Positions 1 through 16,665 of a stretch of 64,000 nt of DNA are shown here, piece by piece; within the stretch, counting starts at the first letter, position 1; each line of letters starts with the position of its first letter. Origin of the DNA: an uncultured Candidatus Saccharibacteria bacterium (lineage in GTDB: Bacteria > Patescibacteriota > Dojkabacteria > J137); NCBI GenBank assembly GCA_964607415.1, contig CAZSKK010000003.1, positions 3,693 through 67,692 on the forward strand. The letters are read 5' to 3'. The translations under genes and the position numbers were made by a program. The notes under the pieces are model-generated. The model made no database searches. It was not told the DNA's origin and saw only the letters and a program-made list of their open reading frames with translations.

Positions 1-1
1 A

Positions 2-871
2 AATCAGGAAGAATTAAAATCTGACTTAAACAAACTTATAACCGAAGGCGGTTACAAATTAGTTGAAGAAGAATCCAATCTCTCTTTAAATTTAAACGAA
101 ACAATCTTTGCATTTGTTCTTTCTGCTTTTATTTTTGCAATATTTATTGCAATTCAAAAGCTTGGAATTGCCAATACAGTAAGTTCCGATAGCGAAAACT
201 ATAGCTTTGCATTTATTTTTAGTATTGGAGTAATTGCATCACTATCAACCTGCATGGCAGTTGTTGGCGGATTAGTTTTAAGTTTATCTGCAAAATACTC
301 AGAAGGACAAAAAACATTACCGCTTATACTTTTTCATATCTCTAGAGTTGTTGGATTTTTTTTACTTGGAGGAGTAATTGGTTTAATAGGATCAGCTTTT
401 GTGATTGGAGTTAATACAACGTTTGTTTTGAATTTAATCTTATTTTTAGTAATGGCAATTTTGGGAATAAGTCTAACTGGACTTTTCCCAACTATAGATA
501 AATTTCAGGTTAGATCACCAAAAGTTTTGGGTAAAAAAATTTTAGAACTGGAATCTGTAAATTCAAAAGCGCTTCCAGTGTTTTTAGGTACCTTAACATT
601 TTTTCTTCCATGTGGCTTTACCCAATCCATGCAAGTTTACTCTCTAACAACAGGAAGCTTTTTTGAAGGAGCAGTAACTATGTTAGTTTTTGCATTAGGA
701 ACTTTACCTGTTTTGAGTTTAATCAGCTTTGCATCTGTTAAGCTTTCAAAGGGATTACAATCAAAGTTATTTTATAAAACTGCAGGATTTTTAATCATCT
801 TCTTTGCGTTAATTAATCTTCATGGTGCCTTGGTTATAAAAGGAATTATTGAGCCACTGTTCACAATTTAG
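2..871 (+). CDS. Polytopic membrane protein, TauE/SafE / DsbD_2-like transporter family. It is 5'-truncated by the window edge.
   Basis: The frame is open from base 2 with no stop upstream of the annotated ATG at 254. Multiple hydrophobic TM segments are present, with a conserved FLPCGFTQ motif in a TM helix. Family assignment is by general resemblance only. Confidence 0.45.
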   Translation, partial: NQEELKSDLNKLITEGGYKLVEEESNLSLNLNETIFAFVLSAFIFAIFIAIQKLGIANTVSSDSENYSFAFIFSIGVIASLSTCMAVVGGLVLSLSAKYSEGQKTLPLILFHISRVVGFFLLGGVIGLIGSAFVIGVNTTFVLNLILFLVMAILGISLTGLFPTIDKFQVRSPKVLGKKILELESVNSKALPVFLGTLTFFLPCGFTQSMQVYSLTTGSFFEGAVTMLVFALGTLPVLSLISFASVKLSKGLQSKLFYKTAGFLIIFFALINLHGALVIKGIIEPLFTI

Positions 872-1087: not shown

Positions 1088-1116
1088 TTGACAGTTCTCC
1101 TTTTCTGCATTACAAT
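1088..1116 (+). promoter_or_regulatory. Sigma70-like promoter (TTGACA-17-TACAAT) for the first XRE regulator gene
   Basis: TTGACA lies at 1088-1093, followed by a 17-nt spacer and TACAAT at 1111-1116. The ORF-track start at 1088 is the TTG of the -35 box and is spurious. Confidence 0.55.
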
Positions 1117-1147: not shown

Positions 1148-1927
1148 ATGGAGGATCTTAGTTCAAAAACAGGAAAAAAGATTCGTTACTTTCGCGAGCG
1201 GGTAAACGAATCGCAGTTAAATATAGAAACAGCAATAAATGCTTCTCCCGGTACGCTTAGTAGAATTGAAAATGGTCAAACAAATCCTACCAAAGAAACA
1301 CTTCTTAAGATTTCAAGATATTTAAAGTTGAATAGGCTAGAAACAGCTTACCTACTGGGAGATACTGATAAACCAAGTTCAATAGAAGAGATTAATGAAG
1401 TTCGAGATAGATTAAAAGAATACTTTGGGAAAAAAGATGTAGTTGCGTATTTAACTGATGATCGCTATAGACTTGTTGCTGCCTCAAAGGGGATCCAGCA
1501 ACTGATGGACGTATCACCTGAACATTTGAAAAAACTCCTAGGTGAATCTTTAATAAAAATATTAATGGATGATTCTTTAGGTATAAAAAAATTTGTTGCA
1601 GACGACGAGTACAAAACAATTTTAAAAAATCTGATTTATCGATACTACGTTGAGGTTGGGTTTATGATCTGTGACGAAAAAAACCTTGAAACAATAGAAT
1701 TTATTTTGCATAATTCTGAAGCAAAAAAATATTGGGAAGAGTCGCACAAAGATTATCTAGAAAATAAAAGCATTTATACACTTGAATCTAGGAAAGTAAC
1801 TTTCAAATTTGGTTTTTTGACTGTTCCTATGTATTTTACCGTAGAACCTCTAACCTGGAATGAAAGGTTTCAAATGGTAGAGTATATGCCTACGAATTTG
1901 ATTATTCGATTGCTTCAGAAGCTATGA
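1148..1927 (+). CDS. XRE-family HTH transcriptional regulator, paralog A. It has a C-terminal domain of about 170 aa that may be an MmyB-like ligand-binding domain.
   Basis: The HTH_XRE signature is QLNIETAINASPGTLSRIENGQTNPTKETLLKISRYLKL. The start is placed at MEDLSSK, downstream of the promoter. The protein is about 45% identical to the next ORF across its full length. Confidence 0.75.
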   Translation: MEDLSSKTGKKIRYFRERVNESQLNIETAINASPGTLSRIENGQTNPTKETLLKISRYLKLNRLETAYLLGDTDKPSSIEEINEVRDRLKEYFGKKDVVAYLTDDRYRLVAASKGIQQLMDVSPEHLKKLLGESLIKILMDDSLGIKKFVADDEYKTILKNLIYRYYVEVGFMICDEKNLETIEFILHNSEAKKYWEESHKDYLENKSIYTLESRKVTFKFGFLTVPMYFTVEPLTWNERFQMVEYMPTNLIIRLLQKL

Positions 1928-2694
1928 TGAATAAAACCGGAGAAAAAGTAAGATATTTTAGAGAGCGTTTAAAAGAGGCACAACTTGACATAGAACTTGC
2001 TATAAATGCAGCGCCAGGTACACTTAGCAGAATTGAGAATGGGCAAACTAATCCCACTAAGGAAACCCTTCTAAAAATTGTTAAATACTTAAAGCTTAAT
2101 AAGTACGAAACAAGCTATCTACTTGGAGAAACAGATGAACCTGTTAATCAGCTAGAAATTGAAAATGCTCAGAAGAAATTACAAGATTATTTGGATAAAA
2201 AAGGAGTACTTGCCTATGTTAAAGATGACAGAGCAAGACTGATAACACTTTCAAAAGATTTTAAACGCCTAATGAACGTTTCTGAAGACAAAATGCATAA
2301 TATGATTGGAGTTTCTTTAGTAAAAGTGGTCCTTGATGATTCTTTAGGAATAAAAAGATCACTGGATGAAGATGGATATGCAGATCTATTGGAAGGAATG
2401 ATATACAGATACTATTTTGAAGTAGGATTTATGGTAACAGATTATTTTAATATAGCTACGAAAGAGCTCATTTTTAATAGTCCACTTGCTAAAAAATTTT
2501 GGGATCAGGCTGAGGAAAAATATTTAAGTGGAAATGAACTTTATACTTTGGACTCCAGAAAAGTAACTTTTAAATTTGGCTCATTTAAAGTTCCCATGTT
2601 TTATACAGTTGAGCCTGTAATGTGGGACGACCGGTTTCAGATTATTGAGTATACTCCTACAAATTCGATTGTTAGATTACTTCAGAAGCTGTAG
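1924..2694 (+). CDS. XRE-family HTH transcriptional regulator, paralog B. It is a tandem duplicate that overlaps paralog A at ATGATGA.
   Basis: It carries the same HTH (QLDIELAINAAPGTLSRIENGQTNPTKETLLKIVKYLKL). The C-terminal block KVTFKFGxxxVPMxxTVEP..W..RFQ..EY.PTN is conserved with paralog A. Confidence 0.8.
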   Translation: MMNKTGEKVRYFRERLKEAQLDIELAINAAPGTLSRIENGQTNPTKETLLKIVKYLKLNKYETSYLLGETDEPVNQLEIENAQKKLQDYLDKKGVLAYVKDDRARLITLSKDFKRLMNVSEDKMHNMIGVSLVKVVLDDSLGIKRSLDEDGYADLLEGMIYRYYFEVGFMVTDYFNIATKELIFNSPLAKKFWDQAEEKYLSGNELYTLDSRKVTFKFGSFKVPMFYTVEPVMWDDRFQIIEYTPTNSIVRLLQKL

Positions 2695-3424
2695 CTGATT
2701 TGTTTAATTTATACTCCACAACCACAAACCTTGGATCATTTGGAATATTTGTCCATGTATATGTAAATTCAAACTTTTTTACTAACAGATCAAACTCAAC
2801 AATTCTCCTTTCTTCTTCCAGAAGATTAATAGCTTCGTCAGGCAAGCTGTCCCACAATCTTTGAAAATCGGGCTGTTTTTTTAATCTTTCAATTAACTCC
2901 TTCCACCAGCTTTCATCAATCAAATAATCTCTTTCCTGCTTAAGAACAGCAATAACACTTGTTGCCACATTATCAAAATCTTTTATAAACTTTCTAAGAC
3001 CTAAACTGGGATCAAAAACAACTTCTGCAACTTGACTATTATAAATTTTCGAGAGATCCAGCCTTGCAAGTTTCGCTATAATCTTAAATCCATCACTAAT
3101 TTCCAGTATTATAGATTTATTATCCAGAAGGTAAGCAAATACCGTTTTCTTTTTGAAATGCGCCCTCAAAGAATTAATCATATTTTCAACTTCTTCCGGA
3201 GTTGGATCACTATGGTTAACATCTAGAAGATATGCCACTTCTGCTTGCGATAATTTTAAAAAGTTAGCAACTTTTACTATTGTCTCTTTAGTAGGATTTA
3301 CCAGATCATTCTCAATTCTGCTAACACTTCCTGCTGAAAGACCAAGCGCCATTTCAAGGTCGAATTGGCTAATACAATTCTTGTTTCTAAAGAATTTCAT
3401 TTTTTGTCCAAGGGATTTTGACAT
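2672..3424 (-). CDS. XRE-family HTH transcriptional regulator, paralog C. It is convergent with paralog B and overlaps it by 23 nt.
   Basis: The HTH is LEMALGLSAGSVSRIENDLVNPTKETIVKVANFLKL. Its size (250 aa) and C-terminal layout match paralogs A and B. Confidence 0.7.
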   Translation of the reverse strand: MSKSLGQKMKFFRNKNCISQFDLEMALGLSAGSVSRIENDLVNPTKETIVKVANFLKLSQAEVAYLLDVNHSDPTPEEVENMINSLRAHFKKKTVFAYLLDNKSIILEISDGFKIIAKLARLDLSKIYNSQVAEVVFDPSLGLRKFIKDFDNVATSVIAVLKQERDYLIDESWWKELIERLKKQPDFQRLWDSLPDEAINLLEEERRIVEFDLLVKKFEFTYTWTNIPNDPRFVVVEYKLNKSATASEVI

Positions 3425-3528
3425 ATCGTGCTCAAGGATTAGGAAATAATATACTAATTTGCATGTATTGTAAATACCAGTAATATCTTAAATAATAATA
3501 AAAACTCCTAGGTATTTGCCCAAGAGAT

Positions 3529-3558
3529 TTGACAAGTTATAAAAAGTTAGAGTATAAT
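3529..3558 (+). promoter_or_regulatory. Sigma70-like promoter (TTGACA-18-TATAAT)
   Basis: TTGACA lies at 3529-3534 and TATAAT at 3553-3558. The ORF-track TTG start at 3529 is the -35 box itself. This region is divergent from the paralog C start. Confidence 0.5.
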
Positions 3559-3579
3559 AGTTATATATTGTTAAAAGAT

Positions 3580-4659
3580 ATGACCCCAACAGATGAAGCT
3601 ATAGTTGAAACGACACCGGATGTTAAAAGCATTCCAGAAGCGCAACCTTCTGCTATTTTATTGTTGATTAGACTACTTACAGATAAAGCTAGTAGTCCGG
3701 ATGGTTCAGATCTGAGAGATGAATTGGCAAGTCTTATGTTTAACATAATGAATAATAATAGCTATGGGCCACAACTAGCCGAAAAACTTGATACACAGAT
3801 CGAAGAACTATACCCATCCTTAAATGTAAGATTGAATGGTCTTGCCGGTAAATATAATTTGGAAACGCTTAACTATAACGGAGATTCGCAAGCGCTAAAT
3901 ATTGCTCAAGATATAATAGAGCAAGGATATAGAAGGCATAAGAGCAAAGACAATAAAAACCAAGGGACATCAAGCGAAGAAGACAAAAATTACAGACCAA
4001 CTATTCCTAGGGTTAAAGGGATTCGTACTGGTTTACTAATGGCTAACCCTAACGAAACAGAAGTGCACCCTAACATTCCTCGTGCAATAATAGGTGTCGG
4101 CATACCGTCAGATTTAAACGATCCAACTTGTAAGCTTGAGGTCGATTACTTTATGAGTAATCCAGAGATAAGCGAAGCTGGGGTCATACAGTGGCTAAGA
4201 ACTAAAGAAGGATTTGAAAATGCTAAGGTCGCTAGTCTTGGTCCTTTCGTAATGGTTGAAGAGATACAGGATGATGGGAAAATAAAATCTGGGTTTAATA
4301 ATCCTAAACATTTAAGATATGCATTCAACTTATTTTCAGGTGTGAGAGGCCTATTAATGGATAAAGCGGGCGTCGATACTATTACTATGATTGCTAGTCC
4401 TAAATTAATTGAACGACTAAACCAATTTGGATTTAACTTTCTTGAATCACCTTTTACCGTATCTCCAGAGAAAATTTCCCCAGAAGGTATTCCTGTTTCA
4501 GAAATAATGAGAAAGTATCCAAGATACTGGAATCCGGATAATGCAGATAAACAACCAAAGCTTTACTATGCAAAATTAGAAGACTTAGCTAAAGCACTTC
4601 CGCATTTAGAACAGATGGTTTCATTTATTGAACAAGCCGGAAATAAGTCAGAAGCATAG
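3580..4659 (+). CDS. Hypothetical protein of 359 aa. The C-terminal region is weakly GNAT/acyl-transferase-like.
   Basis: It is a long ORF with its ATG at 3580, downstream of the predicted promoter. There is no signal peptide. The C-terminal segment HLRYAFNLF...ASPKLIERLNQFGFNF resembles the fold-closing region of GNAT or N-acyl amino-acid synthase-type enzymes. This resemblance is weak. Confidence 0.5.
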   Translation: MTPTDEAIVETTPDVKSIPEAQPSAILLLIRLLTDKASSPDGSDLRDELASLMFNIMNNNSYGPQLAEKLDTQIEELYPSLNVRLNGLAGKYNLETLNYNGDSQALNIAQDIIEQGYRRHKSKDNKNQGTSSEEDKNYRPTIPRVKGIRTGLLMANPNETEVHPNIPRAIIGVGIPSDLNDPTCKLEVDYFMSNPEISEAGVIQWLRTKEGFENAKVASLGPFVMVEEIQDDGKIKSGFNNPKHLRYAFNLFSGVRGLLMDKAGVDTITMIASPKLIERLNQFGFNFLESPFTVSPEKISPEGIPVSEIMRKYPRYWNPDNADKQPKLYYAKLEDLAKALPHLEQMVSFIEQAGNKSEA

Positions 4660-4728
4660 CATTATCCACAGTTACATTTTTCTTCTATTATCTGTATAAT
4701 TCATCATAGAATTGTTATTAACACCTAA

Positions 4729-7008
4729 ATGAGTGAATTTTTATATTACATCTACCTTTTTGTTCTAATTTTTGCTTCAGTGCTCGCCTTTTTAGTCATT
4801 TCACATAACTACAAAAAGCTCTATAATCAAATCTTTTTTGGGATGTTAATCACATTGTCCTTATGGATTGTATCACTATATTTTTTACAAAAAGAAAAAC
4901 ATCCCGATGCCTCTTTGATTTTCGGCAGAATGGGCTTTTTGTTACCGGCAGCATTTATCTTGTTATTCTTTATGTTTATTATTGTTTTTCCTAAAAGGTA
5001 TAAGATTCCAAGCAAAATTGAAATTTTTGTGTTTGGAGGAATACTTATGCTTAACTCAGTTTTATCATTATCTCCATGGATCATTGAATCTGTAGAAATT
5101 AGTGAAAGATTGCCAGTTCCTAATTACGGACAATTTTATCCTATTTATGGGATTTCAATTGTTATATCGATTATATATATTTTTTACATATTTATTAGGA
5201 AACTTATACTTACAAGTGGCTACGAAAGATCAATTCTCAAAGTAATAACTTATGGTTTTAGTATTTCAATATTTATTACTGTCGGAACAAACCTCATATT
5301 GGCAAATATTTTAGAAAATAGAATATCTTCAGCACTTGCTCCACTGAATATGATACCTTTACTTTTATTTGTATTGTACGCAATACTAAAATATAGGTTT
5401 CTTGATATTAGGGTAGTAATAAGTAGAGTTATATACTTCATAATAGTCGGAGGATTTGCATATGTTACGTTTTATGGGCTTATATTGTTTTACACGTATG
5501 TAATAGAAGGAATTTTTACACCCACTGCTTTTTTACTGGGCATATTTAACGCAATTGTTTTCACATCAGCATATGATCTTCTAAATAAATACATAAAGAA
5601 AAATATAAATCCAAGAATTGTTAATCCTCAATTCAACCCTGACGAAGAAACTGCAAGCTTCAATAATATGATTAGTCAGATTTTAAATATTGAGGAAATA
5701 CTAAATATCTCTACAGGGTTTCTTCTTAAAGTTTTAGATGTAAAAAATATAGTACTTTACATTATTAGCAGAGATGAGATCTTGATTAGATCTGGCAAAG
5801 AAGATCTTATGCCCAAAGAAACAATCCAGGCAATTTATCAAACTCTTATAAGCACTGACAAAACAGAATTCATTACTGATGAAATTGAACTTTATGAAGA
5901 CAAAGATTTTGGTAAATTTAAAAACGAGATTAAAACTATCTATTCTATAAGTAAAGCAAATAGAGTCAAAATGATTGCAAAGCTTAAATCTCTAAATAAC
6001 CAATCGGGGGCATTTTTCTTAATTGATAAAGATAACGGGATACTAAATACAACTAAAATTAAATTTATCCATGGTATTTTAGACCTTATTTCTCTCTCTC
6101 TCGGAAGAGCATTTTTATATAAGGAAGTCCAAACGTTCAATTCAACTCTTCAACAAAAAATCGATCAGGCAACTCTTGAACTTACCTCCAAAAATCAACA
6201 ACTAGAGGAAGCTTTGCGTAAAGAAAGAGATATGCTTGATATCTTAGGTCATGAACTTAGAACTCCACTTAGTACCTCCCGAAACTCATTAGATATAATT
6301 GATATCTATAAAAAACAAGGAAAACTTGATGAAGCTAAATTAAACCATCATCTAGATATTGCAAAAGAAAATCTTACCCGAGAGATTAAAATACTTGAAA
6401 CAATTCTTTCTTCTTCAAGAATTGACAACAGTAGATTGCAACTTAACTATGAAGAAGTTGATGCCAACGATGTAGTTGAAGATTCAATATCATCATATAA
6501 AGAACAAGCAGAGAAAAAAGGACTCATATTAAAAACCATACTTCCAAACGATAGAGTCTATTGTTATGGTGATAGAGCTGCTACTCAACAAATTATTGAT
6601 AACCTTGTAAGTAACGCCATCAAATATACACAAAAAGGAGCTGTTACAGTTGAACTAAAACTAGAAGCAGAGACCGTTGTATTCACTGTGAGTGATACAG
6701 GAGAGGGAATTCCAGCAGAAGAAATTCCAAACCTAGGTAAAAAGTTTTATAGAATAAATCCATACCTTAAATCAGAAGGGAAAATTGGTGGCAGACAAAT
6801 TGTAAGGCCAGGTGGCACGGGAATTGGTCTATATGTTGTTTTTAAATTAACAGGTATGATGAACGGTACAGTAAATGTGTCTAGTGAGGTAGGAAAGGGT
6901 AGTGCCTTTACTATAAAGCTTCCAAGATTTAACCCTCAAATCCACGAAATTAAAAAGATTGTGGAAGAACAACAACAACCTGTAAAAGCTGAAGCGTTGG
7001 TTGTTTAA
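4729..7008 (+). CDS. Membrane-bound sensor histidine kinase with a multi-TM N-terminal sensor, HisKA and HATPase_c domains
   Basis: About seven hydrophobic helices lie in the first 280 aa. The H-box is LGHELRTPLS. The N/G boxes are NLVSNAIKYT, DTGEGIP and GGTGIGL. No cognate response-regulator gene is adjacent. Confidence 0.85.
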   Translation: MSEFLYYIYLFVLIFASVLAFLVISHNYKKLYNQIFFGMLITLSLWIVSLYFLQKEKHPDASLIFGRMGFLLPAAFILLFFMFIIVFPKRYKIPSKIEIFVFGGILMLNSVLSLSPWIIESVEISERLPVPNYGQFYPIYGISIVISIIYIFYIFIRKLILTSGYERSILKVITYGFSISIFITVGTNLILANILENRISSALAPLNMIPLLLFVLYAILKYRFLDIRVVISRVIYFIIVGGFAYVTFYGLILFYTYVIEGIFTPTAFLLGIFNAIVFTSAYDLLNKYIKKNINPRIVNPQFNPDEETASFNNMISQILNIEEILNISTGFLLKVLDVKNIVLYIISRDEILIRSGKEDLMPKETIQAIYQTLISTDKTEFITDEIELYEDKDFGKFKNEIKTIYSISKANRVKMIAKLKSLNNQSGAFFLIDKDNGILNTTKIKFIHGILDLISLSLGRAFLYKEVQTFNSTLQQKIDQATLELTSKNQQLEEALRKERDMLDILGHELRTPLSTSRNSLDIIDIYKKQGKLDEAKLNHHLDIAKENLTREIKILETILSSSRIDNSRLQLNYEEVDANDVVEDSISSYKEQAEKKGLILKTILPNDRVYCYGDRAATQQIIDNLVSNAIKYTQKGAVTVELKLEAETVVFTVSDTGEGIPAEEIPNLGKKFYRINPYLKSEGKIGGRQIVRPGGTGIGLYVVFKLTGMMNGTVNVSSEVGKGSAFTIKLPRFNPQIHEIKKIVEEQQQPVKAEALVV

Positions 7009-7123: not shown

Positions 7124-7152
7124 TCAAAATTTGTATTGCAATACAATGCGGC
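7124..7152 (+). promoter_or_regulatory. Conserved upstream element, copy 1 (tcaaaatttgtattgcaatacaatgcggc). It contains the 16-bp perfect palindrome TTGTATTGCAATACAA at 7131-7146, overlapping a TACAAT -10-like hexamer.
   Basis: It matches copies at 14262-14290 and 15748-15776 almost exactly. Each copy sits 75-130 nt upstream of a secreted or envelope protein gene. Confidence 0.6.
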
Positions 7153-7201
7153 GAAAAATTTTTTACGCTATGATCAGTTATTTATTGATCATTTACCTCA
7201 T

Positions 7202-10200
7202 ATGAAGGGCCTTCTCAAAACCACACTAGTTTGGATAAGTATCTATTTAATTCTTTCACCGCTACTCTTAATAAAGCCATCGATAGCTGAAACACTTCAA
7301 AATATTGAAGTTTGCTTCATAGCCTTGGACATCAATAATCAAATTAAACAAAACCTACCTTCAGATACCAATGTGCAAATTGATTTTTATGACAATGTTC
7401 ATTTGCAAGAAAACACAATAAATACCTTATCTGGCAACTTTGCAACAGTTAGTTATACACAAGCATCACCTGCAAATCGAGATTTAATAGGAAATGATGG
7501 AATTTACGATGGCTACTGCGAAACCAGACAGTTTACAGTTGATGCTACAACTGAGTACGCATACACTCAGGCCCGAATATTTTCGCCAAATGATATTTCA
7601 GTTGTTGGATATAATGACCAGTTTGATATACAAGTCCAATCGATAGCAGACGTTTTTACTTATTCTAATGAATTTTTTGATGACATTATTGGAAACGAAT
7701 CAGCAAGAAACATAAACTCGGATGGACATATTATTATGGACGTCAATCGTGAATATAGACATTTAATCACAATTCTTAAAGATAATACACCAATAATCAC
7801 AAACCAACCCCCACAAATCTACCTGAGTTTAAATGGTGAGGCAGAGTATACAAATAATGCAGTTGTACAAACTGACTTGAATATAGCTACAACAAATGTA
7901 ATTCAGAATATCAGGTTTGGACCGAGTGAAGTAAGCATAGCTTCTTTAAACTGGGCCAACTATTCTGATTTTAATGGTGAATATATTTTACCTGGAAGCG
8001 ATTCAACCGGAAATAAAAGGCTTTGTATACAAGTTAAAGATAGTTTAAATCAAGATTCTAATATAGCCTGCGACGAAATAATTTTTGATAATCTACCTCC
8101 AATAGGCAGTATTTTTATAAATAATGATGAAATAGAAACTAGTAATACAAATTTAAACTTGAGCTTAAACGCTATCGATCCAATTTTAGAAGATGATCAA
8201 AATGGAATTGGGGGAATTCAAATGAGATTTTCTGAAGACAATTCGAATTGGTCAGTATGGGAACCTTACTTAGCAACAAAAACTTTCCAAACAACGACTA
8301 ATAATGGACAAGCTTTCGTATTTGTTCAATTTCAAGATTCTTTAGGGAATGTTTCAATATCCTATAGTGATAACATCTTAGTAGATCCAAATTCAACTAT
8401 TGGAACATTAAGAATAAATAATGATGACGCATACACAAATACTAGTTTAGTAAATCTAACTCTTAATAAAATTGGTAATCGAACTCCTTTGTATGTAAGA
8501 TTTATTCAAACTTCTAACGGTCAAGTTCCTTCTAACCCTCCCAATGTTTACAATCCAACTGATAATTTAGGTGGTTGGACATATTGGCAAAACTATTCTG
8601 AAAATAAACAGTGGGATCATGATCATCCCGAAGCAGGAACTGGTACAGATGGATATGGTAAAAAAAGTATTTATGCTCAGTACATGTGGAGCGATAATAC
8701 TGTTACAGAAATTTTTCGAGATAGCATTATCTATGCACCTTACTATGCAATAGAGTATAGGAGTGTAGATCATTCTGAACTTATAACTGAGCCTCAAAAT
8801 TCTACTCCTGATTTCAGTTACGAACCATTTTTTCCGGAATACACTCTGAATAATATCCCAACAAGCTTAAATACTCAGGAAGAAGTTATTATTAAATTAA
8901 ATACAAAAAATAACGGAACTTTTTCTTGGCAGCCAAATATTGTAAATATAACAAATTTTTGGGAGGTAATAAATATTGCCCCAGAATTTCAGTCCTTAGT
9001 TCAATCTTCAACCAGAGGCAACAATGCAACACCTGCGAGTATAATTAACTATAACCAGGAAACTGGAACTTTGAGCTTAACAGTTAAAGCCCCAAGTTAT
9101 CCTGGAACTTACAAGTTAAAACTAGATGCAATTCACGAAGGTGTAGCTCAATTTTCACAGTTTAATAATCCTTCGCCTGGTTTTGAAATAACCGTAACCA
9201 CGAATCCTAATACTCCACAACCTGGAAGTGACGAAGAACCTGATACAGATTTTACCGGCTACTATCCCTCCAATCCATACTCTGGTCAGTTGCATGTAAT
9301 TACTGGTTATGTCAGGTACGCGCCGCCTAACCAATATAATGCACCCTACATGATTGTAGAAGCTGATGGTAGTAGTGCTTATTGGTATATAAATCAGTAT
9401 GATATTGGTCAGTATCTAAATCAAGTGATAAGTGTACCAATTGTAATAGACAATCCTAGCATATTATCTTATTACGTAATCGGCTGGGACGCCATTCCGA
9501 TAAGTTACCCATCTAGTCTTACGTTAAGACCAGGGGATACCATCCCAATTGAAATAAGATATCAAAATGCCGGATACCATATATGGCCGATAGGTACAAC
9601 CAGGCTTGGAGTAACACAATCTGCCAACGGAACGTCTCTTTTTTACGATGGTAGTTGGTTAAGCGATGGAAGAATAAACATGGCTAATAATAATCAGGTT
9701 CGATATGGTGATGTGGCAAGTTTTAGATTTAATATTCATGCTCCAACTAATATCGCAGTTGGGTCCTATAGACAGTGTTTTGAACCATTAGTTGAGATGG
9801 TTACATGGATCGGAGGAAGTGGGAGAGATGTTTGTATAAATATTACAGTTACAAATCAGCCAACTCCTCCAGTAAACAATATTCCGCCAATTTCACCAAC
9901 ACCATCTGGCGATACTGGCTATGTTGTAAGGTACGCGTGCCTAGATGTTCTAGCAGGGCCTCAAGCGGGATTTCCTGTTGTTGTTCATATTAATTACGGT
10001 GATGCAGTTACAGTAATTGGGGAGGCTACGGTTGGAGCAACTGATTGGCTACAAATTAGAACTGGTAGTGGTGTTGAAGGCTGGGTTCCAAGAAGTTCAA
10101 TTGATCATGTAAATGATCCTGCTAATATTTCATTTAATCTTAATAATACTTATATTGCGTCTTATGTTTGTGGAAGTTCGTTAACAGTTTATAGTGGTCC

Positions 10201-13200
10201 TGGAGCTGAGTATGGAGTTAAGCAAATTCTTCCACAATGGACATCTACATATATATTAACAAGTTATAATGGTTGGCAGTTAATTACAATGCCTAATAAT
10301 ACAACTGGTTGGGTAAACTCACGTAGTCAACTTTGTGCAGGCAGCCCACAAGTTTTAGGTTATAGTACTAATAACGGTAACTACTCAGGACAAACAATTT
10401 ACAATGGCGAATTGATATCAAGACCTCTAAATCAAGGTAGCTATATAGTAACTCAGTATTTTAACAGTAGACACAACGGTGTTGACTACGCAGCAAGTTG
10501 TGGAACTCCCGTTTTTTCAATTGCAGAAGGAATTGTGATGATTGCACAAAGTGGATTTTCAAATACGTACAATCCTAATTTAACTGGAGCTGCAAGAATT
10601 GAAGCAATGAACAGAGTCAATTACGTTATGATTGCACATAAAAACGGGATAATGAGTATTTACGCACATCTGCAGGATGTAAATGTGACTTTAGGCCAGC
10701 ATGTCCAAATGGGTCAGAAAATTGGAACGGTTGGGAATACGGGATGGAGCACTGGTTGCCATCTTCATTTTAGTACAAGAACTCCAAGTGGAGCATATTT
10801 GGATCCAGAATCTATTCTTAGTCAGCAGGTAAATGTAGATCAACTAAGAGCATTTAATTCTGTAAGAAGCAGAGAAAATAACTCTACAAGTTATCTTGCA
10901 GTTAATAATCCAAATGGAGTCACTCATCAATATTGTGGAGCATGGATTAAAGATTATGAATACTTTCTCGAACCAGGTGAAACTTGGAGAACATATACAA
11001 ATTTGATTTACAATCCTTCAATTAACAAATCTTTAAGATTAAGAGGTGATATCAGGCTTGCGTATTGGAATAAATATGGTGGGACTTGTGGCAATTTAGG
11101 ATTGCCAACAACAGACGATCTTTGGGCCGCACAATACATATCTAATGGAACAACTACAACTGGTGCTTATCAAAAGTTTGATAAAGGAACCATTCATAGT
11201 AGCGGGCATGGAACATATGCAACAACTGGAACATTAGATTATATTCATACAAGTGGTGGTGGAACTGGAAGATACGGATTTCCTTTAGGTGAAATGTATA
11301 ACACAACTGAACGAGGCATGTGCCAGCAGTTCGAAAGTGGTTTGCTTTGCGAAAGGGATGCACCAGATAATAGATCTGATGCAGAAAAGGCAATTGACGC
11401 AAGAGCTAAAGCATTAGGAAGTACAGGACCAAGTGCACTAATCAATATTTGCGGATATCCGGCAAAAACATATTCCAATGTGATTACAGGTGAGGATGGT
11501 GCGATTGTATATGTAAACGGGAAAGCTACATATAGTTATGGTGGAACGTACGATACATTCGATTACTTTAGCGATAGATGTACAAGATTTGGCATTTGGA
11601 CAAATGATCCAGCGGTTGGAGGAAAAGGTCCATATAATACTCCAGGTGCATATCAGGACTATCAAAACGGAAGGATTTATTGGAGCTGGAAACATGTTGG
11701 AAAGTTTGTTTTTGGAACAATTAAAAATAGGTTTGAAACAGCCGGTGGTACAAATTCACAATACGGCTGGCCAACCAGTGAGGTTTATTCGGTAAATGAA
11801 AACGATGTACAAACAAATTGTCAGAATTTTGAAGGGAGTGGAGTATATAGAAGAATTTGCGAAAGCACAGTTCCAGAGGATACTCCAGCACAAAAAGCAT
11901 TTTATCAGCTTACAGGAATTCGCTTTAGTCCAAGCCAAATTAGGATGGAGTGTGGTAGAGAAACAGTAAATTTGGCTAATGGCGTTGCTATTTATGATTC
12001 AAACCGAAATCTTGCCAGATCTATAACTGGAAATATTTTTACGGCTTACAATTCTAATGGTGGGTGTACTACTTTTGGAATACCTGAGAATAATACTGAT
12101 AGTGTTTGGGGTGCTGGAAATGTGACAGGCTTTGCCCAGCGATTTATAAGATCTGGTAGCCCTCAAGTTATTAACGATTTTTATGAATATAATAACAATG
12201 TAACAATATTGGAAGGCACACCTAGAAATATTTTTGAATTACATAATGGTTTAGGAACTAATGGTTTTCCGGTTAGATACTTTATTGATAGTTCCCTTGA
12301 AGATAGAGGCGTTTGTGTTCAAACAACTACAAGTGGAAATATTTGCGAAAGGCCAATTCCAGAATGGAGTGTTTTGTTAAGAAGTAGGGTAGAAGGTGAA
12401 AATCAAACTTACGATCTTTCACAAATTTCGAGCATTTGTAGTAACAATGATTACAAAATCCATCCTTTAAGTAATGGCATTATTTACTACGATCCGATTT
12501 ATCACAATACAAGAATAATTAGATCAAATATTTTTATTTACTGGAATAGGGCAGACAAAGGTTGTGCTGTGTTAGGATTACCAGAAAACGATACTAGCTT
12601 TCCAATTAGTCCACAAGGAACACCTGGGGAAGCGCAAAGATTTTATAGAGATGAAAAGATTTTTGATATTTACTGGTCACAGTTTGGTACAATCGAATTG
12701 GAAGGTGCTGCAAGGAATTTGTATAACAATAATGGTGGATTATGGAACAATGGCTTTCCGAAGAATGTATTTGAAGACAGTGTAAGAGGTGTCTGTGTTG
12801 AAACGGAAGATAGCACTATATGCCAAAATGAAGCTGCTGATCCCGGCACCTGTGCAGAAGGCCAAACCTGGGATCCTGTGAGTGCACAATGTTTAGAAAA
12901 TAAAGAGTATGAATGTAGACAGCTTCAAATGCATAAATTCACAAGCTCTCAAAATCAAGTGGTATGTGCTAAAACTCTTAACATTTCCTACTTCAATCAG
13001 TACCTAAAGGACGATGGTACCTATAGCGAACCTAGCGATGGGAATAAAATGTGTGGAGCTGCAAGCATAGTAATGATTTCATCTTATTTAGGCAAACTTC
13101 CTATTAAAGATAAAAGTACAAGGATCAAAGATTATATGTATAAAGATGAGGGTCAAGGAATTATTAATGGTACGCAATTAGCTTCAATAACAAATCCTTA

Positions 13201-13630
13201 TACTGGTCAGCCTATTAATATATGTCATGATGGTGCATTTGGTCTTACAGGAGCATTTGTAAGTTGTTCAGAAAGTTCCAAAGAGGGCATGGAAGCTTAT
13301 ATCAAACTAATTGGATTAAAAAAAGATAGTGAAATATGGCATAACCCATATGATTTTGATCCTTCTTGGAATTTTGTAAAAAATTCGATTGATAATGGAC
13401 ATCCAGTTATAATAACTTATGGTTGGAAAGATAAATTATTTGGCCATATTACAGTCATAAAAGGTTATACAAGTGATATCGATGGTAAAAAATTTGTAAT
13501 GAACGATAGCTTTACAGATACAAGTGTTCATGGTGTAGAAAACGGTTATAACTTAGATGGGAATAATGCTCTATATTCTCTTTGGGAAAAAGGATGGGAG
13601 CCAGGATACCTAATCTCAGTCAGCAAATAA
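7202..13630 (+). CDS. Giant secreted cell-wall-active protein (about 2142 aa). It contains a signal peptide, a long Ig/beta-rich region, an SH3b domain, an M23 (LytM) metallopeptidase, about five LGFP repeats and a C-terminal papain-like C39-type cysteine peptidase.
   Basis: The signal-anchor is MKGLLKTTLVWISIYLILSPLLLIKPSIA. The SH3b-like block is GYVVRYACLDVLAGPQ...GWVPRSSIDHV. The M23 motifs are HNGVDYAA...GTPVFSIAEG and GNTGWSTGCHLHF. The LGFP-type repeats include YGGTCGNLGLPTTD, YGFPLGEMY, YGWPTSEVY, FGIPENNTD and LGLPENDTS. The C-terminal block is MCGAASIVMISSYLG...GHITVIKGY. The true start is probably the ATG at 7202, or possibly 7082. The ORF-track TTG start at 7001 and the frame through 7082 translate the conserved upstream motif. 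Confidence 0.8.
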   Translation: MKGLLKTTLVWISIYLILSPLLLIKPSIAETLQNIEVCFIALDINNQIKQNLPSDTNVQIDFYDNVHLQENTINTLSGNFATVSYTQASPANRDLIGNDGIYDGYCETRQFTVDATTEYAYTQARIFSPNDISVVGYNDQFDIQVQSIADVFTYSNEFFDDIIGNESARNINSDGHIIMDVNREYRHLITILKDNTPIITNQPPQIYLSLNGEAEYTNNAVVQTDLNIATTNVIQNIRFGPSEVSIASLNWANYSDFNGEYILPGSDSTGNKRLCIQVKDSLNQDSNIACDEIIFDNLPPIGSIFINNDEIETSNTNLNLSLNAIDPILEDDQNGIGGIQMRFSEDNSNWSVWEPYLATKTFQTTTNNGQAFVFVQFQDSLGNVSISYSDNILVDPNSTIGTLRINNDDAYTNTSLVNLTLNKIGNRTPLYVRFIQTSNGQVPSNPPNVYNPTDNLGGWTYWQNYSENKQWDHDHPEAGTGTDGYGKKSIYAQYMWSDNTVTEIFRDSIIYAPYYAIEYRSVDHSELITEPQNSTPDFSYEPFFPEYTLNNIPTSLNTQEEVIIKLNTKNNGTFSWQPNIVNITNFWEVINIAPEFQSLVQSSTRGNNATPASIINYNQETGTLSLTVKAPSYPGTYKLKLDAIHEGVAQFSQFNNPSPGFEITVTTNPNTPQPGSDEEPDTDFTGYYPSNPYSGQLHVITGYVRYAPPNQYNAPYMIVEADGSSAYWYINQYDIGQYLNQVISVPIVIDNPSILSYYVIGWDAIPISYPSSLTLRPGDTIPIEIRYQNAGYHIWPIGTTRLGVTQSANGTSLFYDGSWLSDGRINMANNNQVRYGDVASFRFNIHAPTNIAVGSYRQCFEPLVEMVTWIGGSGRDVCINITVTNQPTPPVNNIPPISPTPSGDTGYVVRYACLDVLAGPQAGFPVVVHINYGDAVTVIGEATVGATDWLQIRTGSGVEGWVPRSSIDHVNDPANISFNLNNTYIASYVCGSSLTVYSGPGAEYGVKQILPQWTSTYILTSYNGWQLITMPNNTTGWVNSRSQLCAGSPQVLGYSTNNGNYSGQTIYNGELISRPLNQGSYIVTQYFNSRHNGVDYAASCGTPVFSIAEGIVMIAQSGFSNTYNPNLTGAARIEAMNRVNYVMIAHKNGIMSIYAHLQDVNVTLGQHVQMGQKIGTVGNTGWSTGCHLHFSTRTPSGAYLDPESILSQQVNVDQLRAFNSVRSRENNSTSYLAVNNPNGVTHQYCGAWIKDYEYFLEPGETWRTYTNLIYNPSINKSLRLRGDIRLAYWNKYGGTCGNLGLPTTDDLWAAQYISNGTTTTGAYQKFDKGTIHSSGHGTYATTGTLDYIHTSGGGTGRYGFPLGEMYNTTERGMCQQFESGLLCERDAPDNRSDAEKAIDARAKALGSTGPSALINICGYPAKTYSNVITGEDGAIVYVNGKATYSYGGTYDTFDYFSDRCTRFGIWTNDPAVGGKGPYNTPGAYQDYQNGRIYWSWKHVGKFVFGTIKNRFETAGGTNSQYGWPTSEVYSVNENDVQTNCQNFEGSGVYRRICESTVPEDTPAQKAFYQLTGIRFSPSQIRMECGRETVNLANGVAIYDSNRNLARSITGNIFTAYNSNGGCTTFGIPENNTDSVWGAGNVTGFAQRFIRSGSPQVINDFYEYNNNVTILEGTPRNIFELHNGLGTNGFPVRYFIDSSLEDRGVCVQTTTSGNICERPIPEWSVLLRSRVEGENQTYDLSQISSICSNNDYKIHPLSNGIIYYDPIYHNTRIIRSNIFIYWNRADKGCAVLGLPENDTSFPISPQGTPGEAQRFYRDEKIFDIYWSQFGTIELEGAARNLYNNNGGLWNNGFPKNVFEDSVRGVCVETEDSTICQNEAADPGTCAEGQTWDPVSAQCLENKEYECRQLQMHKFTSSQNQVVCAKTLNISYFNQYLKDDGTYSEPSDGNKMCGAASIVMISSYLGKLPIKDKSTRIKDYMYKDEGQGIINGTQLASITNPYTGQPINICHDGAFGLTGAFVSCSESSKEGMEAYIKLIGLKKDSEIWHNPYDFDPSWNFVKNSIDNGHPVIITYGWKDKLFGHITVIKGYTSDIDGKKFVMNDSFTDTSVHGVENGYNLDGNNALYSLWEKGWEPGYLISVSK

Positions 13631-14261: not shown

Positions 14262-14290
14262 TCAAAATTTGTATTGCAATATAATGCGGC
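14262..14290 (+). promoter_or_regulatory. Conserved upstream element, copy 2. Its palindrome has one mismatch (TTGTATTGCAATATAA), which creates a perfect TATAAT. Similarity to copy 3 extends to about 14335.
   Basis: The sequence is tcaaaatttgtattgcaatataatgcggccacaaagtaattttggtagacttactcaaatacttt. It is about 85% identical to copy 3 over roughly 70 nt. Confidence 0.6.
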
Positions 14291-14394
14291 CACAAAGTAA
14301 TTTTGGTAGACTTACTCAAATACTTTATAGCAATTGTGAGTTAAGCGCTAAAGCTAAAGCATTTATATTATTACATACGACTTATCAACTCTAT

Positions 14395-15672
14395 ATGAAA
14401 AAGCTATTTAACAAAATATTCTCAAAAGGACGAAAAAGAAAAAATTTCATTATTGCTATCCTACTAGTTACTATCTCAATAACAGCTTTAGGTTTGATCA
14501 CTTATAAAAAGGAAGTAATGGTTTACCATAAACTCGAAGGTTTTGCTGAAATGGAAAATTATTATGTGTTTGGATTTAAATTTAAATCAGAGAATAAGTT
14601 ACTTACGCCTAGCGAGGAAATAACAATATTAGATACGAATATTTTCTATAAAGGTAGTATATTAAGTCCAACCGATATTCCAGGGTTTCCTTACGTAGGC
14701 ATTTCAGAGACAAAATTAGATTTTTTCGAAACTAAAGTTAAAGATAGCTCAATTTTATTTTTGCCTCATCAAATTGACTCTCCATGCCCTAATGCTTATG
14801 TGGAAACTTTCCGTTATATAGTTTGCCAAACAGATGAGTACACTAAAATTTTTTCTATTTCTTCTCTCAAAAGCAAACCCATTACTAACCAAATTATTAG
14901 TGTGCACGGCAGAAGCCGTATAATGGATTATGTAATAACAGAATCCAAAGAATATTTTTTTATTCAGAACATAACAAAAAATGAAATCTGCCTTTTTCAA
15001 ACCAAAAAACAAGAAGAAGCTTATAGTAGTTGTACTGATGCAGAAGCTGAAATAGTGCCTAATAATGGTTCATCAGAATTGTACGTGTTTGATGTTAAGT
15101 ATTTTAACATTGAAGCTAAACAGGCGATTTTGTTAGGAGGCATACGTATTCGTGGGCTTTCTGATCTTTTTTTTGTAGACCTTAATTTAGATAGAGTTAT
15201 TAAATTCCCCGCGTTCTCAAATAATCTATGGTACGACAGATACTACATAGAATCTAATAATATTTTTGTGATTGCAGCAGATACTAATATTAGATATAAG
15301 TTGGTAAATAATAGTGAGTATGAAATGCAAAGTGATGAATTTGGCGCAGGTATAACTCTATATTGGAGTAATATTGCTACTAAAGCTTTAGTAGACAATA
15401 AGATAATCAATTTATATACTAATAGCACCTTACTAGATCTAAATAAATTTAAATGCAACGCAACTAGTCTAGGAGGCTTTGGCTCAAATAGAAACACTAT
15501 TATTGCAATCAGCTTTAATAATCAATGTAAATTTCACACAATGCTATTAGATCCTCACAAAAATTTCATAAAAAAGCTTGACATTGATACTACGGAAGAT
15601 AGATATAAATTTGTAAAACTGATAACCTTGAAAGATATCGGGTTTTTAAAACAAGAAAACTTCTATATGTAG
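14395..15672 (+). CDS. Hypothetical signal-anchored extracytoplasmic protein (about 425 aa)
   Basis: The start is placed at MKKLFNKIF...FIIAILLVTISITALGLI, which is an N-terminal TM helix. The ORF-track start at 14269 translates the upstream regulatory motif. There is no recognisable domain. Confidence 0.55.
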   Translation: MKKLFNKIFSKGRKRKNFIIAILLVTISITALGLITYKKEVMVYHKLEGFAEMENYYVFGFKFKSENKLLTPSEEITILDTNIFYKGSILSPTDIPGFPYVGISETKLDFFETKVKDSSILFLPHQIDSPCPNAYVETFRYIVCQTDEYTKIFSISSLKSKPITNQIISVHGRSRIMDYVITESKEYFFIQNITKNEICLFQTKKQEEAYSSCTDAEAEIVPNNGSSELYVFDVKYFNIEAKQAILLGGIRIRGLSDLFFVDLNLDRVIKFPAFSNNLWYDRYYIESNNIFVIAADTNIRYKLVNNSEYEMQSDEFGAGITLYWSNIATKALVDNKIINLYTNSTLLDLNKFKCNATSLGGFGSNRNTIIAISFNNQCKFHTMLLDPHKNFIKKLDIDTTEDRYKFVKLITLKDIGFLKQENFYM

Positions 15673-15747: not shown

Positions 15748-15776
15748 CAAAATTTGTATTGCAATACAATGCGGCC
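15748..15776 (+). promoter_or_regulatory. Conserved upstream element, copy 3, with the perfect palindrome TTGTATTGCAATACAA at 15755-15770. Similarity to copy 2 extends to about 15812.
   Basis: The sequence is tcaaaatttgtattgcaatacaatgcggcccaaaagtaattttggtagacttacccaaatacttt. Confidence 0.6.
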
Positions 15777-15903
15777 CAAAAGTAATTTTGGTAGACTTAC
15801 CCAAATACTTTGCGGAATAAACAAATTCGAATAAATAACTTCGAATTAATTTCCAACTTCAAATAGAAAATATTAAAAAATTTTACTTTTTTATTAATTC
15901 ATT

Positions 15904-16665
15904 ATGTCAAGAATACTACATTTGTTTCTTCAGCTTTCTTTGAAAGCTAAAGTTCTTATCTTATTTGCATCAAGCGCTTCTGTTGCTGTAACTGGAACTG
16001 GTGCCTACTTCGTAGCACAAAGTTTAACTACAAATAACGAACACGAGCAAGTTATTACAGAGGAAGTTAACACTAACGAAGCTTTAGACGTTCCATCTTA
16101 TCCTGTAGCTATTGAAGATAACAAAACTGAAGAAGTTGTTGCCGAAGTACCAGTAGAGCAACCTGCTACACAGCCAACATATATTCCTCCAATTCAACAA
16201 CAACCAACTCCAACCCCACAGCCTGCGCCTACACCAGAACCTGAACCTCCAACTGGTGAAGAACCAGAATCAATATTTGGAGGAACTTTTACTAGCAGTA
16301 ACTATCAATTCTCATTTTCTTATATGCCAAGCATGGGTACTGCCTCAAGTACATACGATCCCAATGCGATGACTAAACCAGAAACTATCACTTTTAGTTC
16401 TAGAGCTGGATCAGTATCCGTAAATCCCATGCCTTTTGGAATTGAAACGCCTCCTCCAATTGAAGAATATTCACTTAACGCTGCATCAGGACAAACATTT
16501 AACGTTAGAATTAACAATCGAAATGGAATAATATTCTATGAAGCAAGCTATGGTATATGGGATCAAGGCTCTGTTACAATAGTCCTTTCTGGATACCCTT
16601 CAGTAGAATATGCAAAAGCAGAAGCTAATTATATTATAACCAGCATGAATATAGGAGCAATTTAA
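15904..16665 (+). CDS. Secreted Pro/Thr-rich protein (253 aa)
   Basis: It has an N-terminal signal-anchor (LILFASSASVAVTGTGAYFVA). A low-complexity PTPTPQPAPTPEPEPP linker is followed by a globular C-terminal domain. Confidence 0.6.
   Translation: MSRILHLFLQLSLKAKVLILFASSASVAVTGTGAYFVAQSLTTNNEHEQVITEEVNTNEALDVPSYPVAIEDNKTEEVVAEVPVEQPATQPTYIPPIQQQPTPTPQPAPTPEPEPPTGEEPESIFGGTFTSSNYQFSFSYMPSMGTASSTYDPNAMTKPETITFSSRAGSVSVNPMPFGIETPPPIEEYSLNAASGQTFNVRINNRNGIIFYEASYGIWDQGSVTIVLSGYPSVEYAKAEANYIITSMNIGAI

Follow-up and report, generated by a model that had tools for sequence, protein, structure and literature searches.

A regulator-kinase cassette with exchangeable cargo genes in Candidatus Dojkabacteria-type genomes, a candidate small-molecule signalling system

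We analysed a 64,000-nucleotide stretch of DNA from an uncultured bacterium that falls within the candidate phyla radiation (CPR, Patescibacteria), namely positions 3,693 to 67,692 of contig CAZSKK010000003.1 (assembly GCA_964607415.1), here called the window (W). A block at window positions 1148-7008 encodes three XRE-family helix-turn-helix (HTH) regulators, R1, R2 and R3, a 359-residue orphan protein and a sensor histidine kinase, and it is followed by the gene for a giant secreted hydrolase. In about 12 loci of Candidatus Dojkabacteria-type genomes, regulators of the same clade are neighbours of orthologs of the kinase, while the cargo genes lying with them differ from locus to locus. On balance, and with some reserve, we favour the reading that the block is a chromosomal small-molecule signalling cassette conserved in these genomes, working along the lines of the circuit proposed below.

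Organization of the block

An original prediction, made from the letters of the DNA, placed five open reading frames (ORFs) in the block, and all five are present. R1 (1148-1927, + strand; 259 residues) and R2 (1924-2694, + strand; 256 residues) are tandem paralogs that are translationally coupled via an ATGA overlap. Their junction reads CTATGATGAAT, and the TGA stop of R1 overlaps the ATG of R2 in the stretch CTATGATGA. The divergent third paralog, R3 (2672-3424, - strand; 250 residues), is convergent with this pair, and the 3' ends of R2 and R3 overlap by 23 nt. The orphan gene (3580-4659, + strand) and the kinase gene (4729-7008, + strand; 759 residues) complete the block. The G+C content of the window is uniform at about 33%, and the window carries the housekeeping genes for GltX, ClpB, RmuC, LepA, a release factor and MnmA; the block is therefore chromosomal. 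The nearest relatives of its proteins are all in metagenome-assembled genomes of Candidatus Dojkabacteria (WS6) or other Patescibacteria.

The regulators

Pairwise alignments of the three regulators run over their full lengths, with identities of 57% for R1/R2 (E 8e-113), 31% for R1/R3 (E 1e-36) and 27% for R2/R3 (E 7e-31). The paralogy is far beyond chance, and the triplication of the regulator is real. The original prediction of three paralogs with nearly identical HTHs and a shared KVTFKFG..VPM.. motif held for the paralogy of all three proteins, but the near-identical HTH and the motif are found in R1 and R2 only. R3 is an old, divergent copy, 45-48% identical to R1 and R2 in the HTH and 21% identical in the ligand-binding domain (LBD). 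Between R1 and R2 the helix-2 to helix-3 core of the HTH is 91% identical and the LBD 52% identical. Divergence within this pair is thus concentrated outside the DNA-reading part, which fits diversification of the ligand rather than of the operator, so that only the first half of the suggestion that triplication reflects ligand or operator diversification suits R1 and R2.

The XRE HTH expected in each protein was found with Pfam HTH_3, which is above cutoff in all three (R1 37 bits, R2 31.4, R3 32.2). The C-terminal domain had been likened, from its size and position, to the MmyB-like LBD. In the search with the corresponding Pfam model, MLTR_LBD (PF17765), R3 scored 35.4 bits against a cutoff of 26.3, and R1 and R2, which their full-length homology ties to R3, gave no match; the gathering score is reached by one of 11 clade members, and the L012 regulator is sub-threshold at 20 bits. 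A family profile of the 11 clade members, compared with PDB sequences, gave as its top match 3PXP (E 7e-7, residues 40-219), the family's founding structure, that of MltR (Caur_2278), with an HTH and a PAS-like LBD that has a helical insertion. An AlphaFold (AF2) model of R1 built on the clade alignment (pLDDT 89, pTM 0.85) likewise had 3PXP as its best Foldseek match, over both domains (E 5e-10, 281 columns, TM-score 0.59), and PAS domains ranked after it. The Pfam match of R3, the profile match and the model match together support the MmyB-like assignment, and the C-terminal domain does resemble known ligand-binding folds.

Conserved residues of the family, in MltR numbering, are Pro110, Ala111, Asn124 and Asn149, with Glu70, Arg71, Arg181 and Trp210 at the interface (Xu et al. 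2012, PMC3406030). In the HMMER alignment, Glu70, Ala111 and Trp210 align with the conserved E65, a conserved A and the invariant W196 of the present clade, and the positions of Pro110, Asn124, Asn149, Arg71 and Arg181 are replaced. Because three of the listed residues are kept and five are replaced, we regard the clade as divergent members of a known family. As judged from profiles and the R1 model, R1-R3 are divergent one-component regulators of the MmyB/MltR family, with an XRE HTH and a predicted PAS-like LBD. The HTH of the clade carries the signature SRIENGxxNPTKET, which is near-invariant across the MmyB-type and GAF-type proteins of the loci described below; the 64-kb window encodes no other protein with an HTH of this type.

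MltR is the only solved member of the family and binds myristate in its PAS-like pocket (PMC3406030). R1-R3 resemble it in having an N-terminal XRE HTH and a C-terminal PAS-like LBD of about 170 residues, and they resemble the family at large in the multiple paralogs per genome, with the LBD more divergent than the HTH (Xu et al. 2012, PMC3406030). They differ in that the identity of the clade to MltR is only about 17-18% and in that the HTH signature is specific to the clade. Further, the family has been described as 64% actinobacterial and 29% proteobacterial, whereas the present host is a CPR bacterium, and descriptions of the family mention no systematic pairing with a histidine kinase.

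MmyB itself, from the methylenomycin cluster of Streptomyces coelicolor, is a pathway-linked activator thought to bind pseudo-palindromic 'B-boxes', and members of its family adjoin genes for the biosynthesis of small-molecule signals, SGR_6891 for example lying beside the A-factor synthase gene afsA (PMC3406030). The present regulators similarly have a GNAT-like protein or other small-molecule enzymes beside them, and there are palindromic promoters of activator type. Unlike the MmyB system, the window's system has no antibiotic cluster, no TetR-type butenolide/furan receptor and no TTA control; its cargo is one or two genes, and its operator and the -42.5 promoter geometry described below are deduced. 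A second comparison is with the RRNPP regulators ComR, PrgX and Rgg, which also join an XRE HTH to a C-terminal sensor that binds a self-made signal, and which also have palindromic operators and tandem paralogs. Their sensor is TPR, whereas that of the present clade is PAS-like (GAF in sister loci), and there is no peptide-signal gene here; the Foldseek match of the R1 model to ComR/PrgX is restricted to the HTH (TM-score about 0.24).

The cassette in related genomes

One genome per species was scanned with the clade HTH signature, which gave 24 loci, and more were obtained through exact-protein look-ups; L-numbers denote relatives' loci and other contigs. Two module types were seen. In type M the regulator is an XRE HTH joined to the MmyB-like LBD, and in type G the same HTH is joined to a GAF domain. 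Type M modules, with one to three regulator copies, are those of W, L003, L004, L005, L006, L012, L013, L014, L023, L030, L039 and L040. They always lie 0-4 kb from a full-length ortholog of the window kinase, seven-transmembrane (7TM) region included, although orientation (co-directional or convergent), spacing and intervening genes vary. The co-occurrence across relatives that the original prediction proposed to check is thus found for regulator and kinase, as a shared neighbourhood in about 12 Dojkabacteria-type loci.

Mostly unannotated and variable cargo genes lie between or beside regulator and kinase. W, L030 and L034 carry the orphan family as cargo: L030 has two regulators, an orphan homolog and the kinase, in that order, and L034 has a receiver fragment, an orphan homolog and the kinase. 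In L013 an orphan-like gene adjoins the kinase on its far side. Orphan homologs therefore adjoin the kinase ortholog in three relatives, directly upstream of it in L030 and L034 and adjacent to it in L013. In L035 an orphan homolog and an R3 ortholog are divergently arranged, and the contig stops short of any kinase. Elsewhere the cargo is a 427-642-residue protein of no assigned family with an S-adenosylmethionine methyltransferase (L004, L039), a 513-residue protein with an Asp/Glu racemase (L040), a glycosyltransferase (L005), an M23 peptidase (L006), or unannotated proteins with a DDAH-like enzyme (L012, L023). Alignment by hhalign of the orphan family with the cargo proteins of L004/L039 (427-642 residues), L040 (513), L003 (689), L012 (275) and L014 (311) was negative, and Pfam and NCBIfam scans of these same proteins were empty. 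Because the cargo proteins share no homology, the conserved core is, on these comparisons, the regulator or regulators plus the kinase, and the orphan is one of several alternative cargoes.

Type G modules, with two or three tandem XRE-GAF copies, are those of L007, L009, L018, L022 and L025. They adjoin kinases that share only the core with the window kinase, and they adjoin small sets of terpenoid genes (L018 8745-14703, L007 13467-16883, L009 7950-12373, L022 7751-9793 and L025 7323-12064), which are wedged between the tandem regulators and the histidine kinase. Among the products are a polyprenyl synthetase, a class II cyclase of the squalene-hopene type, the prenyltransferase UbiA and, with DDxxD-like motifs, probable class I synthases. 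Terpene cyclases were unexpected in genomes so reduced.

The recurrence of the module also bears on whether it is a mobile-element, prophage-repressor, toxin-antitoxin or defence module, its XRE proteins being repressors of a horizontally acquired island. XRE HTH proteins are typical phage or toxin-antitoxin regulators, and NCBIfam and PADLOC gave weak matches to DicA, RstR, HipB, CapH and RmrA. These matches, however, are limited to the HTH of about 60 residues and score far under the family cutoffs, Pfam and PADLOC revealed no integrase, toxin or defence protein, the G+C content is uniform between housekeeping flanks (GltX, ClpB, LepA, the release factor, MnmA), and the module recurs in a chromosomal neighbourhood in many species. 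We consider an origin of this kind scarcely credible. Identity as a defence system in particular was rejected, the PADLOC matches being to generic HTHs only.

Two decayed regulator genes were seen in the survey. At L005 9071-9834 (- strand) a second MmyB-type gene is split into two ORFs, and at L026 1245-1871 an XRE-GAF gene has decayed into an HTH remnant and a separate GAF ORF.

The kinase and its receiver

Hydropathy of the kinase indicates about nine transmembrane helices in residues 1-285, a region that matches HisKA_7TM (PF16927) weakly (23.1 bits against a cutoff of 28.6, residues 9-227). A cytoplasmic GAF domain follows at about residues 296-473, for which the ortholog profile matches the GAF structures 6OAP, 3LFV and 6UV8, and then the Pfam domains HisKA and HATPase_c (93 bits). 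The boxes H508-E-L-R-T-P, N625/N629, D656-x-G-x-G and G696-T-G-x-G-L are invariant in 13 orthologs, and the ortholog profile matches kinase cores in the PDB at E 8e-38. Apart from an uncommon sensor region, the protein is an ordinary HisKA kinase.

The kinase has no receiver domain, and there is none anywhere within 1148-7008. With CheY, Spo0F, PhoB and NarL as queries, one receiver protein was found in the 64-kb window, the stand-alone receiver at 18312-18782 (+ strand; 156 residues; Pfam Response_reg 71.6 bits), which lies 11 kb downstream of the block and has no output domain. It is 51% identical to receivers encoded directly upstream of the regulator gene in L003 and L004, and in L034 the C-terminal fragment of a receiver lies directly upstream of the orphan homolog. 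The description of the kinase as having no partner regulator therefore applies inside the block but not to the window. Since related receivers adjoin the module in L003, L004 and L034, the protein at 18312-18782 is, by this comparison, the likely phospho-partner of the kinase.

A more direct coupling was considered, in which the kinase would signal straight to the XRE-MmyB regulators, by interaction or by phosphorylation of the PAS-like domain, so that regulator and kinase form a non-canonical two-component pair and the regulators take the place of a DNA-binding response regulator, which is missing near the kinase in these reduced genomes. Regulator and kinase are strictly neighbours in the roughly 12 type M loci; the two genes are directly next to each other and convergent in L012-L014 and L023, where no gene for a receiver lies within 10 kb on either side; and the only receivers near the module lack an output domain. 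The regulators, however, contain neither a receiver domain nor a known phospho-acceptor motif, the modules of L003, L004, L022 and L034 include receiver-only genes, as would be consistent with ordinary phosphotransfer, and our literature searches found no precedent. Direct signalling of this kind is very unlikely.

The orphan protein

The orphan has no Pfam or NCBIfam match at E<=1. An exhaustive phmmer search of 1.84 billion representatives found three homologs, at 75%, 36% and 34% identity, and a profile search added only the 267-residue protein of L013, a distant homolog; a search with a profile of five sequences brought no more, and none of the homologs carries a Pfam label. By these searches the orphan belongs to a new, very small family of five members. 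A jackhmmer search with the orphan as query drifted to unrelated 155-residue proteins and was disregarded.

The original prediction had called the C-terminus faintly GNAT/acyl-synthase-like, and at the level of fold this proved sound. An AlphaFold model from four sequences has an overall pLDDT of 71, rising to about 80-90 for residues of about 90-350, and shows the GNAT topology (beta1-alpha1-alpha2-beta2-4-alpha3-beta5-alpha4-beta6/7). Its Foldseek matches are all GNATs, with FeeM at the top (E 4e-4, TM-score on the target 0.59), followed by TofI (6e-4), BjaI (8.5e-4) and LasI (5e-3). The C-terminal 260 residues or so are thus predicted to have a GNAT fold nearest FeeM and the acyl-homoserine lactone (AHL) synthases, at fold level only. 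The likeness to LuxI/FeeM synthases lies in these best matches of the model (FeeM 2G0B, TofI 3P2H, BjaI 5W8A, LasI 1RO5) and in the position of the orphan gene beside ligand-sensing transcription factors. The differences are an extra helical N-terminus of about 90 residues and insertions in the orphan and, relative to LuxI systems, a receptor that is MmyB-like rather than LuxR.

The alternative that the orphan is a non-enzymatic accessory or adaptor of the kinase, built on a degenerate GNAT-like scaffold and making no local signal, strikes us as doubtful. It gains from the orphan gene being always paired with the kinase, from the lack of a sequence match to any GNAT, and from inspection of the protein, in which neither the acyl-CoA P-loop (Q/RxxGxG/A) nor the LuxI signature was seen. 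On the other side, the family has invariant polar and aromatic residues that suggest a pocket (Y117, H120, R139, E187, D189, Y190, S219, Y313, Y316 and W317), the top fold matches are synthases that use acyl-ACP or acyl-CoA and likewise lack the P-loop, and equivalent positions in sister loci are occupied by bona fide enzymes.

Another cargo protein, the 311-residue product of L014 13048-13983 (- strand), encoded beside the kinase, contains the LuxI-like motif MRYQVFKMGKGW, with the R-x3-F-x5-W spacing of the LuxI/LasI N-terminal signature. In a phmmer search of the PDB, LasI was among its only four weak matches, at E=1, and we keep this as a lead, not as evidence.

Palindrome promoters and the giant hydrolase

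A 16-bp palindrome, TTGTATTGCAATACAA, occurs in the window at 7131, 14269 (one mismatch) and 15754, with a weaker copy at 29997; at up to three mismatches there are six matches, against 1.4 expected. The three strong copies share a block of about 45 nt and all lie within 9 kb downstream of the cassette. The first forms the promoter of the giant hydrolase (7131-7174, + strand), with the palindrome at 7131-7146, a 22-nt spacer, the -10 hexamer TATGAT at 7169-7174 and no -35. The second (14269-14312, + strand; 22 nt, TAGACT) precedes a gene for a membrane-anchored protein (about 14397-15672), and the third (15754-15797, + strand; exact, 22 nt, TAGACT) precedes one for a membrane-anchored, Pro-rich protein (15904-16665). 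The weaker promoter at 29997-30040 was seen ahead of a family-2 glycosyltransferase gene (30015-30767). The hydrolase, the two membrane-anchored proteins and the glycosyltransferase look like an envelope regulon, as far as promoter sequence can tell. The ORFs listed from 14269 and 29997 have their TTG starts inside the palindrome itself and have probably been extended too far.

For the giant hydrolase, gene callers choose TTG 7001 or ATG 7082 as the start, both upstream of the gene's own promoter. Given the promoter position and a signal anchor (MKGLLKTT...), the true start is probably ATG 7202, which puts the palindrome and the -10 in a 193-nt intergenic region and makes the gene 7202-13630 (+ strand), with Pfam domains SH3_3, Peptidase_M23, LGFP and Peptidase_C39_2.

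Each gene-proximal exact or near-exact palindrome is followed by a TA-initiated -10-like hexamer, mostly TAnnnT, 21-23 nt downstream and mostly at 22, and no -35 box is recognisable at the palindrome promoters. Among relaxed 7-2-7 sites (TTGnnTT-NN-AAnnCAA), 15 of 57 have a -10 at this spacing, against 5.5% of background positions. From the fixed spacing to the -10, with predicted start sites, we infer that the palindrome is centred near -42.5, a class II activator position. In class II activator-dependent promoters of the CRP/FNR type the site is centred near -41.5. The present promoters are alike in that the 16-bp palindrome lies 21-22 nt from the -10 with no recognisable -35 and a centre near -42; they differ in that the putative binder is of the XRE family and in a conserved upstream TTTC..CAAAAT flank that has no known counterpart.

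The same architecture recurs in relatives. In L018 the exact 16-mer, its flanks unchanged, stands between the kinase and a giant-like gene, and it is also found in L026 and in three metagenome contigs. Ahead of MmyB-type regulator genes it is seen in L041, as TTGTAATGCAATACAA, 22 nt and TATAAT before P0004 (39% identical to R2), in L012 and L013, as TTGCGTTCTAACGCAA, 21 nt and TATAAT, and in L006; it also stands ahead of GAF-type regulator operons in L007, L018 and L022. This looks like positive autoregulation by the clade, to go by the promoter sequences, and together with the near-invariant HTH it makes it credible that R1 and R2 bind the palindrome promoters of the window.

Two further observations concern the element itself. 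A metagenome scan for the 24-nt palindrome block found it only in three short contigs, L027 (101-124), L028 (2829-2852) and L029 (844-867), of 37-46% G+C, with genes for secreted or PEP-CTERM-like proteins downstream and no regulators visible on the contigs; the element may not be confined to Dojkabacteria. At L041 1540-1594 only about 8 nt separate the -10 from the ATG of P0004, so the P0004 mRNA may be leaderless.

The block's own genes have promoters of another kind. The R1-R2 operon is preceded by a sigma-70-like promoter at 1088-1116 (+ strand; TTGACA-17-TACAAT, 11/12 consensus) and the orphan by one at 3529-3558 (+ strand; TTGACA-18-TATAAT, 12/12). For R3 there is a promoter-like site at 3446-3474 (- strand; TTTACA-17-TATTAT) that overlaps the pseudo-palindrome GTATTGTAAATAC, and for the kinase a promoter-like site at 4671-4700 (+ strand; GTTACA-18-TATAAT, 10/12), on weak evidence. 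The orphan promoter and the R3 promoter block are both conserved in L035.

The original prediction had the signal circuit controlling the hydrolase. In its favour are the activator-type palindrome promoter of the hydrolase gene and the presence of such promoters before regulator genes of the clade; against it, L018 is the only relative in which a giant hydrolase-like gene directly follows the kinase, which weakens the link, lack of synteny in relatives having been named in advance as the finding that would tell against it. The fixed promoter geometry and the palindromes before clade regulator genes keep the link plausible. Control of the giant hydrolase by R1-R3 is thus plausible from promoter comparison, and the hydrolase is probably a target of the cassette, not part of the sensor module.

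R1-R3 might instead regulate purely locally, acting on the orphan-kinase unit and on themselves in response to a metabolite, with the palindromes bound by another XRE paralog outside the window and the proximity of the hydrolase incidental. We regard this as possible rather than probable. The regions upstream of R1, R3, the orphan and the kinase are free of the palindrome, exact TTGTATT-type sites are missing from most other MmyB-type loci, the one relative in which a hydrolase follows the kinase (L018) has GAF-type regulators, and candidate binders are many, since this HTH is also carried by short stand-alone proteins and by GAF-fused ones. Yet the MmyB-type regulator genes of L041, L012, L013 and L006 are themselves preceded by the palindrome/-10 architecture, the three strong sites of the 64 kb cluster within 9 kb of the cassette, and the window offers no further protein with this HTH.

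A proposed circuit

In the circuit that we favour, homo- or heterodimers of R1-R3 would bind a small ligand in the PAS-like pocket; an amphipathic ligand is suggested because MltR, the only solved relative, binds myristate. The GNAT-like orphan would make or modify this ligand, a role that in sister lineages would fall to the methyltransferase, racemase or glycosyltransferase and, in the GAF-type version, to terpene cyclases. The kinase would sense a membrane or cytoplasmic cue through its transmembrane and GAF regions and phosphorylate the receiver at 18312-18782, kinase and stand-alone receiver forming a second input. The regulators would act as class-II-type activators at promoters lacking a -35, with TTGTATTGCAATACAA centred near -42.5, and the window's palindrome promoters would drive the giant M23/C39-like hydrolase and at least two envelope proteins. 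Near-consensus constitutive promoters of their own precede R1/R2 and the orphan, so that ligand, and not the abundance of the regulators, would gate the circuit.

Several points weigh against this circuit. All of its functional steps, that is, binding, ligand and phosphotransfer, are deduced. The cargo genes of the other loci have no detectable homology to one another, and for some an enzymatic nature is not obvious. Many of the relatives' regulator-kinase loci (L007, L009, L012-L014, L018, L022 and L025) have a conserved polyprenyl synthetase gene nearby, so part of the linkage could be inherited synteny. For the orphan, the GNAT call comes from a four-sequence model with modest Foldseek scores (E 4e-4, TM-score about 0.6, root-mean-square deviation about 7 A). 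At the level of sequence the orphan resembles no GNAT, LuxI or FeeM family: Pfam Autoind_synth, Acetyltransf_5, FeeM and the NCBIfam equivalents gave no match, and the orphan-family profile met no meaningful match, and no GNAT, among PDB sequences. The LuxI signature residues are R24, F28, W34, D45, D48, R70, E101, S103 and R104, and the R-F-W and E-x-S-R motifs are not evident in the orphan.

On the promoter side, the TTGTATT-type palindrome is absent upstream of R1, R3, the orphan and the kinase, where the only trace is a +1-spaced pseudo-site at 3465-3477; the promoters of R1-R2 (11/12) and the orphan (12/12) are near-consensus sigma-70 promoters with no palindrome; and exact TTGTATT-type palindromes are commoner in GAF-type than in MmyB-type loci. 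Other XRE paralogs with the same HTH, short or GAF-type and encoded outside the window, may be the true palindrome binders. Last, a giant hydrolase-like gene directly follows the kinase in one relative only, L018, and that of L003 is 3 kb away on the other strand.

A bolder form of the proposal, which we think quite unlikely, is that of a self-contained synthase-receptor-kinase system of an episymbiotic CPR bacterium, in which a rapidly diversifying cargo enzyme would make a lineage-specific lipophilic signal that is read by swapped-sensor XRE receptors and the kinase and that activates giant, host-directed cell-wall hydrolases. The cargo enzyme would be a LuxI/FeeM-like GNAT here and a terpene cyclase, prenyltransferase, methyltransferase or racemase in sister lineages. 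Receptors with MmyB-PAS or GAF sensors, and the polytopic GAF kinase, would read the signal, and the palindrome regulon would amount to quorum- or host-sensing control of predation in CPR bacteria.

Other features of the window

At least three independent assemblies of this genome (the starts of L001, L036 and L037, and window 1-253) break within a few bases of one another, about 57 nt upstream of an HMA-DsbD gene. Such breaks at nearly the same point suggest a repeat or hard-to-assemble element just upstream of the window. A second giant ORF (19290-25229, - strand; 1979 residues) lies directly after the receiver gene region and has no Pfam match. A 299-residue ORF at 35748-36647 (+ strand) matches only the C-terminal part of UvrB (Helicase_C, UvrB and UVR domains) and may be a split or truncated uvrB.

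Significance

To our knowledge, almost nothing is known of gene regulation in CPR/Patescibacteria, or of how reduced episymbionts control very large secreted hydrolases, which are thought to act on host cells. In our literature searches no work turned up on MmyB-like regulators, on histidine kinases or on AHL synthases of Dojkabacteria or Patescibacteria. Four things are new: a conserved cassette of regulator and kinase in which both sensor domain and cargo can be exchanged, the presence of this cassette in CPR bacteria, the class of activator-type palindrome promoters that goes with it, and the orphan protein family. The MmyB/MltR family is extended to a phylum outside its described, mainly actinomycete, range, and the same HTH is seen recombined with PAS-like or GAF sensors. 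The locus offers a concrete circuit, composed of a regulator clade with a signature HTH, a 16-bp candidate operator whose promoter geometry holds across species, a kinase with its receiver, and a candidate signal-making enzyme. If the cargo enzymes do make the signal that the regulators read, the cassette would be the first proposed case, in a CPR bacterium, of a small-molecule signalling system that is self-encoded.

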